Source: Octopus vulgaris
Lineage: Eukaryota
Direction: 5' to 3'
Length of the DNA: 64,000 bases
Assembly (NCBI GenBank): GCA_951406725.2
Contig: OX597827.1
Span: 49,724,001-49,788,000 of the forward strand
In this document: positions 4,367 to 46,425 of the stretch, piece by piece
Layout: the number at the start of each line of letters is the position of its first letter
Position numbering within the stretch: the stretch's first letter is position 1
The notes under the pieces: model-generated
Database searches by the model: none
Seen by the model: only the letters and a program-made list of their open reading frames with translations
Told to the model about the DNA's origin: nothing
Program-made: the position numbers and the translations under genes

Positions 4367-4847
4367 GTAAAGCACTGACATTTCCTCTCTGAGTTTTTGC
4401 TTCTTGACCATCATTATTATTTATGCTAATATTTCTTCTCTTAATTTCATTTTGTTAACTTCTGTTTCATTGTTGCATTGTTAACTCTTGAGTATCTTCT
4501 CTCATCATGTTTAATACCTCTGCTATTGTTGTAATCCTGGATTTTCAATTGACATCTTTAACATCATATTAATCATCGTCACTGTATCATTACCACTTGT
4601 CTTTAATCAATGCAAACACAATCACCATAACCACTACCACTAGCACCATCCTCATTTGTCATTATCGCCACAATTAAGCACATAAATACTACCATTGCTA
4701 TCATTATTTGCAGCAAAGGTAGCATCATCATCTAGCCTAGCAAAATGGTACTTTGAAAGTAATTGAAATTGCTCAATATAGCAAAAAAAAAAAAAAAAAA
4801 AAAAAAAATTCCTATGCCTTCTGTTTTTTCAATATTAGGAACAACTA

Positions 4848-32488: not shown

Positions 32489-34005
32489 TATTTTCTAAAT
32501 CTAAATATTTTATTTGAAATTTTATCCTTAGCTTCAATATTTTAAGTAAACATTTTCTTGTTCTGTACTTTACCAGATGTAATGAGTTGTCCTGAACTTT
32601 TCCAAGTGTAGTAACTTGTCCTGTACTTTTCCAGGTTTATAATCTTAAGAATATTCTCTTGCTCACATTTTCCCATGTAATATACATACACACACACACA
32701 CACATATACACGCATATATACATACATACACACATGTACACATAAATACATTCACACATATGCATACATATATATACATACACACATACATATATTTGCA
32801 CATATGCATACACACACATATATCCATACATACATATATACATACATACACATATATACATATACATACACAAACACACACACACACACACACACATATA
32901 TGTATCTATACACAAACACATATATACATATATATGTACACACATACACATATACATATATATTTTCTAGTTCGTACGCACCTATATATTTGCACACGCA
33001 TTCACACCTCTATATCTATATATATACCTAAATACATATGCATACATACACATATATATATATATGTATCTACGCTACTCAAGTATTTAAGTTCACATAT
33101 ACACTGGTAGTATATCTGTGAGGGTTGTTCTTCTCTTCAACGATCGAATGATTGAAAGTGTGGGTGTCATCCACTTCTATTTGGATATATGCATCTTTTT
33201 TTTTATAGAGAGAATCCCGTTATTGAAGGGTGAAATATTATTTTTTTTTTTGTGTTCAGTGGTGGTTTGTACTTTCTAATGAAGAATTCTTCATTATATT
33301 TCTGGAACTCTTAGTTGTTCGACCATAACTTAAAAAAGGGGAAGATTATGAATTTTCCCTTTCCTCATGACGCAAAGTGTTCACTGCAAGTGATGTTTCT
33401 GACAGACGGGTCTCTAGCTTGTTGTTTATGTACACGAACTCTGTTATATAGTCCCATTCTGGTTTCACTAATGTAGTATTCTTTACATTGTGAGCAAGTT
33501 GATTCAGCACTTAGAAAAGAATTTGAAAAACATTATATTTCTTACCAAACGTCAACTATTCAAAAGGAATCAGCAGGAGAGGACTTTCATAAGCCCTTCA
33601 TAAAACACTCCTTAAACACCCCACCACCTCCAAACTCCACTGTCAGTCAATTATCATTTACTATTTTCTTTTCGCTCTTATTCATCAACACTACTTCACT
33701 CCCACACTTAACAAACCCAGCCCCACCCCAGATACACCCAATTCTCTTATACATAGAATCACACACCACAATACAACCTGAGATCAGTTTGACAATCGCC
33801 ACCGACGAATGTGAGAAAATTCTACGGAAAAGTTAACAAAGAATGTTTAAAAAACTTACCGAAGTAAACAAAGAACTTACGAGATTTATAAACCAAACTA
33901 TAAAATTATATTATTAAAAAATTAAAAAGATTAAATTGATTAAAACTACCAGTGAAGTCATTCAACTCCTTCATCAAGTACACACACACACACATATATA
34001 TATAC

Positions 34006-38690: not shown

Positions 38691-39144
38691 TATATATATA
38701 TATTCCCCTTCCTTTCTTTCCCTCTCCATCCGTCTTTCCCCCCCCCCCCTTCTACGTTTCTCTATCTCTCTCACCTCCAGTCCCCTCGATCTGTCTCTCT
38801 CTTCTCCTCCCTCGTCCACCTTCTCTCTCTTTTCATCTGTCCCTTTCTCCTGTCTTTTGTTCTCACGTGACCGCTAGCCACTGCTGAGCGCTCTTTTCGT
38901 TCCAGCAGTCGCCGAAGCAACACGTATTTGTTCGTCTCCCTGCGGCCATTAGGCACAACTTCATAAGCCAGCCCTAAACTCAACTCGTCCTGTCGAAAGA
39001 CCCTTGTCCTATGTCCTGGTTTTGTTTTGTTTTTTATTTTTACCGTTATTGTTTTTACGTTTTTGTATTCTTATTGGTGTCACGTATTCTGTATTTTTGT
39101 TCGTGTACTTCGTTCGTTTTCCGTCCTCGTGTTGTATACATTCG

Positions 39145-39354
39145 AAGCTTTCTTCCAGGGGATCTAATGCGCTTGGCTTAGATTTCCCTTGGCGGGCTGC
39201 CCAAATCGGAGCAATCTCAAGATTAATCAGCCGAAATTGCTAAGATGATCTGGTTCTTGACTGATGACTGAGGGCTTCGAATGTCCCGTCCTGTGGTTCT
39301 TGTGTCGTCTCTATGGTGTTTCATGTTCTTGTCCATGTCTGTAATTATTTTTAC

Positions 39355-39360
<6 letters not shown>
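39145..39360 (+). repeat. Structured repeat, copy 1, with hammerhead-like core fragments
   Basis: Aligns with 39853-40090. Conserved ggagcaatctc...cagccgaaattgc...gactga.ga. Runs into (TA)n. Confidence 0.7.
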
Positions 39361-39424
<64 letters not shown>

Positions 39425-39716
39425 TGTATGTATGTATGTATGTATGTATGTATGCATGTATGTATGTGCGTGTGTGTATGTATACATATATATATGAATA
39501 TGTATGTATGCATATATGCACATATCCTTTTATCTTATTTCGTTTAATGTATATACATATTTTTAAATAATATTCTTCTCTTATATTCAAGATTTATACA
39601 TTTGAATTATTTCTGTATCTTTATTATACTTATTACTCTTTCGCACCAGTTTCTCAATAATAAAAAAGCTTTTTTATTCACATCCATTTAGATCACTACT
39701 TTATATTTTAGAAAAT

Positions 39717-39748
<32 letters not shown>

Positions 39749-39852
39749 ATCAATTTTCTAACATATAACGTAGTGATGTAAGTTGATGTGAATAAAAAAG
39801 CTTTTTTTGTTATTGAGTGATTGGTACGAAAAAGTAATAAGTATAATACGCT

Positions 39853-40090
39853 GCTTTCTTCCAAGGAATGTAATACTTTTAGCTTATTTTTTCCTCGGGT
39901 TGGCCAGATTGGAGCAATCTCGAGTATAACCAGCCGAAATTGCAAAAATAACTGGAACTCGACTGAGGACAGATACTCCGAATGATGCGTCCTTGTTTTT
40001 CGTGTATCGTCTGTATATTTTTTGTGCCTTTTTTGTTTCATCTAACTATCTGGATGTTTTGCGTTCTTGTCCCATTTTTGTATTTTTTAG
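39853..40090 (+). repeat. Structured repeat, copy 2
   Basis: Diverged direct repeat of 39145-39360. Confidence 0.7.
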
Positions 40091-40140
40091 ATATAAAATA
40101 TAGCGGCGTACGTACACTTTGGTCTCTCTCTCTCTTTCTC

Positions 40141-43055: not shown

Positions 43056-44729
43056 TCAGCCTATAACTGGGTCAAGGTGCCACACTAAATGTGCCGTAAA
43101 CTCAAGGCGATTTCCCATTTTTTTCATACATTTTTTGCATGTGAATGGATCAGCATCATCAGCTGAATGTAAACTGTTATGTAACATGAACATGGCAGAA
43201 TCTTCAAACCAAATATGGCAATGTTCACATCGGGTGCCCGATGACATGTCTGATAATTGTTGCTGCTTGGTAGTGATGTTGATGTCGCTCTTGTTGGAAG
43301 TGTTGCTGTGGTACATGAGATCAAGGTAAGCAGTGGAGATAGGATAAGGTGAGAACTGCAGTCGTGGATCTAAATGTGATGTCATGTAGAATGGCCGGGT
43401 AAATGAAGATGGAACACCGAGGAGGTTACGTGTGTAAGTCATGTTGTGAAGTCCTAGCCCTTTTGACTCCCGTTTGATCAATGCTTTCAGGCTGTCTGAA
43501 CTTCTTTTAAAAGGAGGTGGGCATGGTATGTTACTTCCGGTCACTGCTGGTTGGTAATTGTCGTCACAGGAGACGCTTGGTAGTAAGGACATGTTAAAGT
43601 AGTCTGATACATGTAACCTATTCTTGCGACTGCCCTTGGATAAGCTGGTCATCATCGCTGGGTCAGGCTGGTGGGACAGGGATGATACTTCCATCTTTGG
43701 ACGATTGTTACAATCTAGTTTCTTATTTTCAATTTTGCCAGTATCTCCACGCTCTTTACTTAAATCTTCAGCAATTATTTCTACTTCAAAGGATCTACTA
43801 TCATCATTTACATTAATCTGTTGCTCTTGGTCATGGCCAGGTGACAGTTTCATCTCCACTCTCCGACTTGGTTTGTCATTGCTGTCGTGGTCGTCCCTGT
43901 CGTTATCGTTCAAACTTTTACTACCAAAAATTGACTTCAAAGCTTCTATTTCTGTACTATCATTGTTTTTACTGTTGTTGTTGTCATTGCTAGTAAGGTT
44001 GTCATCGTTATCGTCCTTGCTGCTGTTATTGTTATTACTACTCTCTGGTGGTATCTGAGACAGGCAGAACCTTGCACAACCTATCCACTTGCTTCCATGC
44101 AAGTTTGGCTTCTCATTTAAAGTTACTTGTTCTGAATGCAAGCTGCTTCCACTCTTTGGATTTACTATGTCAAGTCTCGGGTCAGCGCTCATGGGATGGA
44201 GAGTGCCTCTGCGTCCTCGTGTCGCCCGGATATTACCTTTAACGTCATGAAGTCTTTTGTGTCGATCCAATTCATCTGAAGTGGGAAAACCTTCTCCACA
44301 ACATCTGCAAAGATGAATCTGATGGATCTCATGTGTGCGCAAGTGAGTGGCCAACAAATGGCAACTAGTAAATCGGGCGTTGCATAAACGGCACATATTT
44401 TTCTGTCGGTTGGGAGAGTGAACCTTCATGTGTTGTTTGAGGTGGTCAGAACGTGTGAACCGTCGTCCACACATGTTGCAAATGTATGGTCTCTCACCGC
44501 TGTGCACTCTAACATGTCGTTGTAATTTGGAAGGTGTACGATATGATTTGTTGCAGATTGCACAGTTCAAAGGTGCATTACCTCGACTGTGTTGTAGAAC
44601 ATGGAGCTGCATGTCTCTCACTGAGGTGAACTGTTTAGCACAATAACGACACATGTAACTGGTAGCCATAGCCATCTGCTGTACAGGGTAACGACTGCTT
44701 GCACTTATTGACGGTACTCGTACACTCAT
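43056..44729 (-). CDS. C2H2 zinc-finger transcription factor, about 557 aa, with 5 N-terminal fingers and a C-terminal Ikaros/Hunchback-type finger pair
   Basis: Only long intact ORF in the window. Seven CxxC...HxxxH motifs and an SGERPY linker. Splice acceptor ttttgtag at 44746-44747 lies 16 nt before the ATG at 44729. The ORF-track extension to 44900 is intronic microsatellite. Confidence 0.93.
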   Translation of the reverse strand: MSVRVPSISASSRYPVQQMAMATSYMCRYCAKQFTSVRDMQLHVLQHSRGNAPLNCAICNKSYRTPSKLQRHVRVHSGERPYICNMCGRRFTRSDHLKQHMKVHSPNRQKNMCRLCNARFTSCHLLATHLRTHEIHQIHLCRCCGEGFPTSDELDRHKRLHDVKGNIRATRGRRGTLHPMSADPRLDIVNPKSGSSLHSEQVTLNEKPNLHGSKWIGCARFCLSQIPPESSNNNNSSKDDNDDNLTSNDNNNSKNNDSTEIEALKSIFGSKSLNDNDRDDHDSNDKPSRRVEMKLSPGHDQEQQINVNDDSRSFEVEIIAEDLSKERGDTGKIENKKLDCNNRPKMEVSSLSHQPDPAMMTSLSKGSRKNRLHVSDYFNMSLLPSVSCDDNYQPAVTGSNIPCPPPFKRSSDSLKALIKRESKGLGLHNMTYTRNLLGVPSSFTRPFYMTSHLDPRLQFSPYPISTAYLDLMYHSNTSNKSDINITTKQQQLSDMSSGTRCEHCHIWFEDSAMFMLHNSLHSADDADPFTCKKCMKKMGNRLEFTAHLVWHLDPVIG

Positions 44730-44761
44730 CTCTTGACTCAGGTGCCTACAAAATACAGAAA

Positions 44762-44800
<39 letters not shown>

Positions 44801-45109
44801 ATATATATATATATATATATGTATAAATATTTACATATACGCAAACACATGTATAAACATTACGCATATGTCTAGGGGAAATAACTGAAATTTCAATCAA
44901 TTAAAAATTAATTGAGTGGATATGAAGAGCTGTGAGTTTGATCAAATGTGGATATTTTGTGGGATGTTAGTCTGGTGAAATATGCATATCAGATGATGAG
45001 TTAGTCTGTTCTACTGTGGGTATTAGATAGTGGGATAGCCTGATATAACGTAGGCATCAGATGGGTATCAGTCTCATCTAGTTAATATAAGTATCAGGCT
45101 GATATCTGG

Positions 45110-45364: not shown

Positions 45365-46425
45365 ATGCTCAGAAGGAGGCTGTGGCCTGATACAGGAAAA
45401 TAACTAACTACTATAAAATAACAACAGTTGGGCTAGGAAAGTACTTAGAAACAAAGAGTGGAAGACTGCTGCATGTAGTAAAGCAACCCGAGAAAAAAGG
45501 GAGCCCTTTTCTCTATATTCAAAGAGGCGACAAAATACGAAACAGAAACAAACTACACTGACACACTGATCTTAGATAACAACATAACAGAAATGGTTAA
45601 AGAGACAAAAAACAACCTGAAAACAGAATTACAAAAGGTACTGAAGAAGAAATGGAAGAAAAAAAATCACTTCATGGCCAGTACTCTGGAAGGCTTGACA
45701 GAGAAGAAGTAAGCCTAACAATGGCTCAAAACCTCTGGACTAAAAGCTGAAACGGAAGGACTATTTCTCGCTGCACAAGACCAATACCTGAATACAAACA
45801 ATTATAAAAACAAGATAATGAAAATACCAATACCAAATGCCCTATACCAAATGCAGAAAGTGCAAGCAGCACAATGAGACAGTTGACCACATCGTCTCGG
45901 GATGCCCAGTTCTTGCCAAGTCTGAATATATATACAGACACGACAAAATAAGCAGTTATATCCGCTGGACAATATGTCAATATTACAATATTAAGGATGA
46001 CAATAGGTGGTATAAGCATATGCCAAATAAGGTACAAGACAACGACCAGGCCACAATCATCTGGGATAGGCCACTTCAAACCGACAAAGAAATAAAAGTT
46101 AATCGTCCAGACATAATAGTCAAGGATTGGGAAAAAAAAAACACCTGCTTACTGATAGACATTGCAGTCCCTTCTGATCAAAATATTGTCCAAAAAGAAG
46201 TGGAGAAATTGTCAAAGTGCAAAGGCCTCAAAATTGAAGTATTCAAGATGTGGGACATGAAGGCAAAAACAATACCAATAATAATTGGGGTATTGGGCAT
46301 GATAAAAACATATGAACAAAAACGTAGAAGCTATACGTGAATCCTCAACACTACACACTATCTCCAAAATAGTCCTGCTAGGAACAGTCCACATCCTACG
46401 CAAGACACTCTCAATTCAATAGTAC
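45365..46425 (+). mobile_element. R4/Dong-like non-LTR retrotransposon 3' fragment (CCHC finger plus restriction-like endonuclease)
   Basis: CRKCKQHNETVDHIVSGC, YRHDKI, NRPDIIV and LLIDIAVP...EKLSK. Frameshifted. Confidence 0.85.

Follow-up and report, generated by a model that had tools for sequence, protein, structure and literature searches.

The window analysed here, 64,000 nucleotides of the Octopus vulgaris genome (contig OX597827.1), carries two insertions of microsatellite-associated repeats on its forward strand. The first (38701..39368) is a single, young, 5'-truncated unit of family A, a repeat whose full unit is 771 nt. It lies between (TA)n runs and is 98.7% identical over 668 nt to a unit of the tandem locus L001. 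The second (39841..40092) is a short and worn insertion of an older sister family, family B, whose 3' end was set by eye against locus L034. Between the two (39653-39818), a long inverted repeat encloses a (TA)n run and resembles a small foldback element. A GUC-GAAA-GAC hairpin (38990-39010), about 200 nt upstream of the motif described below, is kept in both families. The window also includes a Penelope-like GIY-YIG domain remnant on the minus strand (33251-33499), the remnant of a non-LTR element with a restriction-like endonuclease (45822-46340), and a 614-codon open frame on the minus strand with several C2H2 zinc fingers (around 43060-44900), which is probably an exon of a host gene.

Each insertion contains the same succession of conserved segments, at the places given in a preliminary description of this DNA. 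In family A (copy 1) these are GCAATC (39211-16), TCAAGA (39217-22), GAAATTGC (39233-40), TCTTGA (39255-60) and CTGATGA (39261-67). In family B (copy 2) they are GCAATC (39914-19), TCGAGT (39920-25), GAAATTGC (39936-43), ACTCGA (39957-62) and CTGAGGA (39963-69). The helix formed by the second and fourth segments, stem I, differs between copies by the two compensatory changes already noticed at the time: pair 3 is A-U in copy 1 and G-C in copy 2, and pair 6 is A-U and U-A. Both repeat copies are thus real, and they are independent insertions of sister families rather than a tandem pair. The hammerhead core is entirely present, i.e. CUGAnGA, GAAA and UH with U16.1-A15.1, these letters having doubled as search terms. 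Its parts do come in a non-canonical order, and site-GAAA-CUGAnGA is the order published as type SGC (Eckert 2023, PMC10085705).

All strands of the copy 1 fold lie on the forward strand. The motif is closed by P0, a 15-bp helix returned by RNAfold, which pairs 39138..39152 with 39270..39284 and whose 3' strand begins two pyrimidines past A9 (39267). The Pa hairpin (39155..39192, 13 pairs) stands between the 5' strand of P0 and that of stem II. The latter, GGCUG (39195..39199, with G10.1 at 39195), is displaced upstream and pairs with CAGCC at 39228-39232. The 5' strand of P4 (39201..39207) pairs with 39247-39253 in six of seven positions and is the counterpart of the helix through which stems I and II interact in type SGC. 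P4 is joined to stem III by a loop with GGA on one side (39208..39210) and 39241-39246 on the other, which, judged by eye, may be kink-turn-like, a kink-turn having a bulge of 3 nt and then tandem G-A pairs between two helices. The same pattern was seen by eye in several octopus families, in both polarities, and is not evident in most metagenomic motifs. Block S follows (39211..39216), with the 5' strand of stem III and the AUC triplet, and the predicted cut falls between 39216 and 39217. Next come the 5' strand of stem I (39217..39222, pairing with 39255-39260), block G (39228..39240), formed by the 3' strand of stem II, GAAA (39233-36) and the 3' strand of stem III, and finally the 3' strand of stem I with CUGAUGA (39255..39267), after which there is no stem II strand. 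The copy 2 motif (39898..39969) has stem II at 39898-903/39930-35, intact stems I and III and core, and a predicted cut after 39919. Its Pa, P4 and P0 are damaged by deletions.

The preliminary description had judged stem II not convincingly supported. Stem II is present, and its 5' strand lies upstream of the cleavage block and of the interval that had been considered (39195-99/39228-32). The further helices P4, Pa and P0 are also in part beyond that interval. Because this strand is upstream and does not follow CUGAnGA, the link between A9 and G10.1 is open and bridged by P0 and Pa. A9 is joined to stem II neither directly nor through one or two nucleotides. When the copy 1 junction is scored with 2-nt links it reaches 52, against 24.8 in shuffles, and none of 200 shuffles is as high. 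Scored flush, with two pyrimidines after A9, it is at shuffle level (164 of 200 as high). The trans-dimeric hammerhead that had been proposed becomes superfluous, since a single unit supplies every helix. On the other hand, the idea of a pseudoknotted, permuted hammerhead in a microsatellite-associated mobile family gains support from the pairings, the covariation and the repeat anatomy.

Several other structures were considered for these sequences. A type III or type I hammerhead was rejected, as the block order S-G-C does not fit; against type III, it is GAAU rather than GAAA that comes after CUGAnGA, and a matching stem III strand is lacking. An HDV-like reading based on a conserved CGAAUG was also rejected, this strand being the 3' arm of P0, which is not kept in other families. 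Readings as a SECIS or a C/D box were dropped once the hammerhead layout was found to covary.

The specificity of the motif comes from the combination of its parts. CTGANGA alone occurs 33 times in the window against 26.5 expected, i.e. at chance level. A descriptor requiring the S-G-C order, stems I and III and the upstream stem II has exactly two matches in the window, the two copies, and none in 40 shuffled windows. A loose S-G-C pattern returned 26,348 raw matches in the whole genome and 1,967 for a reversed control, counts that are both inflated by overlapping matches and do not represent copy numbers. Relaxed patterns revealed more families in the genome, with stems unrelated in sequence. 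Rfam covariance models gave no ribozyme match in the window, only microsatellite-driven ones. RNAfold alone gave z of -2.4 and -0.8 and did not return stems I or III.

We analysed covariation within the sister families using 22 sequences and a structure drawn from copy 1, which puts the slid controls at a disadvantage. The full model pairs 87.3% of the cells. Changes on both sides affect 22 of 48 pairs, against 11.7 in shuffled data, and none of 500 shuffles was as high. They are found mostly in stems I (four of six pairs), III and P4 (six of seven), as well as in Pa (four of 13), and in only one of the five pairs of stem II. The first pair of the upstream stem II is G-C in all 22 sequences. 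The canonical type-SGC stem II was rejected in these families because 11% of its cells are paired, compared with 10% in shuffles.

Is the layout found beyond close relatives? An alignment of reverse transcriptases (RT) led us to 52 metagenomic loci, many of which encode intact ORFs of 860-1,340 aa with an N-terminal GIY-YIG and a DKA, and which we scanned for the motif without filtering. Sense-strand matches lie behind the ORF in 20 of the 41 loci with at least 250 nt of tail, 17 being S-G-C and three CSG, and the remaining 21 have no motif match. The minus strand of the metagenomic loci gave three weak matches only. None of 80 control loci examined in viral contigs (of 120 returned) passed on stems I and III. 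In the S-G-C loci, the upstream stem II has 5-6 bp in 16 of 17 and the canonical one 0-3 bp in all 17. The flush junction of P0, Pa and stem II, with zero-nucleotide links between A9 and P0, P0 and Pa, and Pa and stem II, beats shuffles in 15 of 16 metagenomic loci and in five of five consensuses of genome families (at most five of 200 as high). Stem II with P4 does so in 22 of 22 (at most 15 of 200 as high). Seventeen Naiad loci compared with Rfam gave no hammerhead match.

The pairings are also conserved among 17 unrelated motifs with a median identity of 0.385. This set leaves out the near relatives L409, L411, L422 and L447 and takes in four clusters of the octopus genome (15 were parsed, five entered the junction test, and these four are those with at least six copies). 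Stems I, upstream II and III are paired in 16-17 of the 17 motifs at each position, with three to four pair types at most positions. Pair II.1 (G10.1-C11.1), which adjoins GAAA and involves the upstream strand, is G-C in 17 of 17. The canonical stem II positions are paired in 3, 5, 10 and 6 of the 17, which is shuffle level. Counts for P4, Pa and P0 are lenient in this set because registers were optimised per sequence. Single worn copies fit the layout less well.

We also examined 14 published Naiad consensus ends by eye, and all their names except Naiad_Ovul were taken from file order. Five are consistent with the split arrangement (two octopus, squid, hydrozoan, box jellyfish), two have an intact CSG (nematode, spider), one fits partially, and six show none or were unparsed. 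The motif lies in the 3' UTR of Naiad_Ovul as well as behind metagenomic Naiad ORFs, and the single-copy 3' UTRs of autonomous Naiads contain all the helices. One locus of the octopus genome (L210) links the motif to the remnant of a Naiad RT, located 1.45 kb upstream.

Some Naiad tails have other motifs. Intact type-CSG hammerheads are found in three loci forming one RT clade (L435:3480, L436:1696 and L438:2930; 100/100). By eye, intact-block type-SGC hammerheads, with stem II directly after CUGAUGA, lie behind the ORFs of two sister Naiads (L426, around 4640-4730, and L444, around 2420-2510). One tail in which the hammerhead is absent (L418:3076-3135) has a twister-P5-like match of 28.7 bits (E 0.051), below the gathering score of 37.6, and the nearest RT relatives of this locus (L408, L409) have the split hammerhead. 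The 3' tails of L417, L429 and L432 have a common GGGCC..UAAA motif without Rfam match at E 0.5, which is reminiscent of pistol or twister ribozymes. In the RT tree, loci labelled as split or as lacking the motif do not group by label, the root falls on a very long branch, and the labels of L444 and L426 are wrong (both read as intact SGC). Hence, we claim no order of events. The proteins of these loci also vary: a ubiquitin carboxyl-terminal hydrolase domain (PF00443) is C-terminal of the RT in eight of 16 proteins scanned (E 2e-30 to 2e-25), i.e. in the metagenomic Naiad-type ORFs of L426, L428, L430, L439, L442, L444, L445 and L447. A Josephin-like motif is mentioned for a Chlamys element in Craig 2021 (PMC8557442).

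Families A and B insert at (TA)n, are truncated in 5' and have head-to-tail copies. These are traits of Naiad Penelope-like elements (PLE), for which Craig 2021 describes (TA)n targeting, 5' truncation and partial tandems. Family A occurs as monomers, dimers and trimers, head-to-tail with a spacing of about 770 nt. Their 5' ends vary, and the 3' end is fixed and runs into (TA)n about 150 nt beyond the predicted cut. Unlike Naiads, it has no ORF (GIY-YIG, DKA, RT): the unit lacks a long ORF and is non-coding, whereas related loci with the same fold have ORFs. Copy 1 has 2,490 preliminary candidates in the genome; 40 were scored, 30 of them being 100% identical. The best other genomic copies of copy 2 are 88-91% identical. 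The published consensus of the octopus Naiad has a tail with 348 pattern matches in the 2.8 Gb genome. We detected no sequence shared by families A and B with an ORF-bearing Naiad, and no match beyond independent insertions. In this genome we found no intact Naiad ORF: all Naiad-like RT matches that we scored are broken, the longest frame having 292 aa. The most fitting reading of the family is that of a non-autonomous derivative of Naiad Penelope-like elements.

The octopus genome also encodes intact Penelope-like ORFs of 718-851 aa, with a C-terminal GIY-YIG wherever this is visible. They were rejected as autonomous partners because none of the 29 regions has the split motif or similarity to family A. 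Several young families with such ORFs (e.g. L169:1245-3590, L482, L484 and L485) have no adjacent hammerhead by our descriptor. Two antisense S-G-C matches, in L488 and L490, were attributed to chance, as they lie within GIY-YIG coding DNA and their strands overlap.

If the motif cuts, the insertions could carry a trace of it. The predicted cut, after 39216 in copy 1 and 39919 in copy 2, coincides with a step in the 5' ends of the genomic copies. In the whole genome, 112 joins between (TA)n and the element are exactly at +1, the predicted cut, and control positions have 11 (at -2), 27 (at -10/-11) and 16 (at about +32). TA microhomology is greater at these controls than at +1, and those just upstream have 4-10 times fewer ends. 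All 12 cut-flush loci that we fetched are short inserts starting at the predicted cut. In the 30 nt above stem II there are 1,448 ends joined to (TA)n, of which 92 retain sequence upstream of the cut; these are raw counts that include duplicates, the upstream side is about half of the 30-nt interval, and the upstream-retaining count is lowered because its pattern demands six more exact letters. Many 5' ends are 3-11 nt inside the predicted cut, and most long family A copies read through it. In F-type families, most of the first 100 listed ends, assessed by eye, fall at +7 to +9; about 13 are at the cut and some 5-7 upstream of it. These inner ends and the F-type peak indicate that the pattern also owes something to stalling or microhomology. 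At the scissile bond itself, the step fits a cut template best: a template ending there would be expected to stop copies that were primed 150 nt downstream.

How does this motif relate to known hammerheads? Eckert 2023 (PMC10085705) splits the ribozyme into blocks S, G and C, which are assumed to be uninterruptible and give six permutations, and reports that types SGC (HRIMA-1 and variants) and CSG cleave in vitro. In the parts of that paper used here, the SGC examples are from metatranscriptomes and none from the genome of a known organism, while CSG corresponds to two metagenomic sequences. Our motif and type SGC have in common the block order, the core letters and a short linker between stems I and II, as well as a fourth helix, here P4, which ties the outer ends of these two stems. 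The difference is that CUGAnGA runs straight into stem II in type SGC, whereas here the stem II strand stands at the 5' end, with P0 and Pa occupying the gap. Moreover, an animal genome harbours thousands of copies of our motif. Since block C (stem I strand, CUGAnGA, stem II strand) is interrupted, the motif may work like SGC but we do not file it as a member of this type. With type CSG it shares the cyclic strand order, the split form being a CSG whose stem I-CUGAnGA half is shifted to the 3' end, but as described in Eckert 2023 CSG has A9 joined to stem II, without P0 or Pa. The block order is already published as type SGC, and the upstream stem II with an open A9-G10.1 link is the new part.

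Two kinds of mobile elements invite the same comparison. Non-LTR retrozymes of animals were reportedly described by Cervera and de la Pena in 2020. Like family A, they consist of non-coding units in tandem that each contain a single hammerhead and derive from the pseudo-LTRs of PLE, but the account in bioRxiv 10.64898/2026.07.22.740005 gives them type I hammerheads, whereas the order here is S-G-C. For Naiads, the relevant parts of Craig 2021 (PMC8557442) report no canonical hammerhead and only unexplained core halves, the 'HHR_half_core' of eight elements including those of octopus and squid, with the second half on either side. In a literature search covering mostly openly available journals, we found neither the split layout nor ribozymes in Naiads described, nor any report of a natural hammerhead whose A9-G10.1 link is open.

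Because all the hammerhead parts are present, the layout recurs in Naiad tails and many copies begin at the predicted cut, we consider it quite likely that this split-core hammerhead self-cleaves after C39216 and serves a non-autonomous Naiad-type retroelement. From what is generally known of RNA structure, stem II would stack on the A9-G12 pair. P0 would stack on Pa as a four-way junction, which could fix A9 although no bond joins it to G10.1. Stems I and II may be clamped together by P4 and the 5-nt linker between them, and in octopus families the kink-turn-like loop might bend P4 toward stem III. By analogy with models of PLE and retrozymes, transcripts of tandem units would be cut to unit length. 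A Penelope-like RT, primed at (TA)n in the genome some 150 nt past the cut, would copy from 3' to 5'. If the template is cut, synthesis would end at the cut or slightly before it, and templates that are uncut, religated or circular would let it continue, giving longer and multimeric copies. Taken jointly, it seems probable that this is an active wiring outside the six permutations, in which the chain enters and leaves via the A9-G10.1 bond of the catalytic core, a four-way junction taking the place of this bond; that it is the main self-cleaving motif of Naiads across several animal phyla, swapped in other Naiads for an intact CSG, an intact SGC or twister; and that the 5' ends of insertions record cutting in the germ line.

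The motif might instead be a hammerhead-derived scaffold that does not cut, and that binds a Naiad protein or stalls the RT. The 5' ends would then result from stalling and TA microhomology, as the many ends 3-11 nt inside the cut would suggest, and the long family A copies that continue through the site would be expected. Perreault 2011 (PMC3088659) describes core insertions of one or two nucleotides and indicates that such insertions usually slow hammerheads, which also favours a scaffold. We find this explanation unlikely. The drop in ends falls at the scissile bond, and microhomology-richer positions just upstream have 4-10 times fewer. The core letters, which were search terms, and the G10.1-C11.1 pair, whose G10.1 was not, are kept while all the stems vary. 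Moreover, sister Naiads put an intact CSG, an intact SGC or a twister-like motif in the same place, and such swapping is expected if cutting is the function.

The upstream stem II could also be an off state or a storage form, the active ribozyme arising through another pairing or a trans-dimer. That units are head-to-tail and that the junction of copy 1 is imperfect is compatible with this. However, the strand following CUGAnGA fails to pair with the one preceding GAAA, both in cis and, since the letters are identical in both units, in trans. All the helices exist in single-copy 3' UTRs of autonomous Naiads, the invariant G-C pair belongs to the upstream helix, and we regard this possibility as quite improbable. 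A chance arrangement in decayed repeats, with covariation caused by common ancestry and fitting, is largely refuted and has a minimal probability. Loose descriptors do yield chance matches, including in coding DNA, and registers were optimised, but 40 shuffled windows gave no match and none of 80 viral control loci passed. The bias in strand and position behind Naiad ORFs and the shuffle tests on helices that were not used in the selection also speak against chance.

If the motif cuts, a covalent link that was assumed to be essential in the best-studied small ribozyme would be dispensable, and the permutation scheme of Eckert 2023 would need an additional class. The 'half cores' of Craig 2021 would be explained, and the argument that Naiads thrive without ribozymes would fall. 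Non-circular hammerheads, represented by metatranscriptomes and two metagenomic sequences, would enter animal genomes in thousands of copies missed by standard searches. For the role of ribozymes in Penelope-like retrotransposition, the step in 5' ends seen at the predicted cut is directly relevant.
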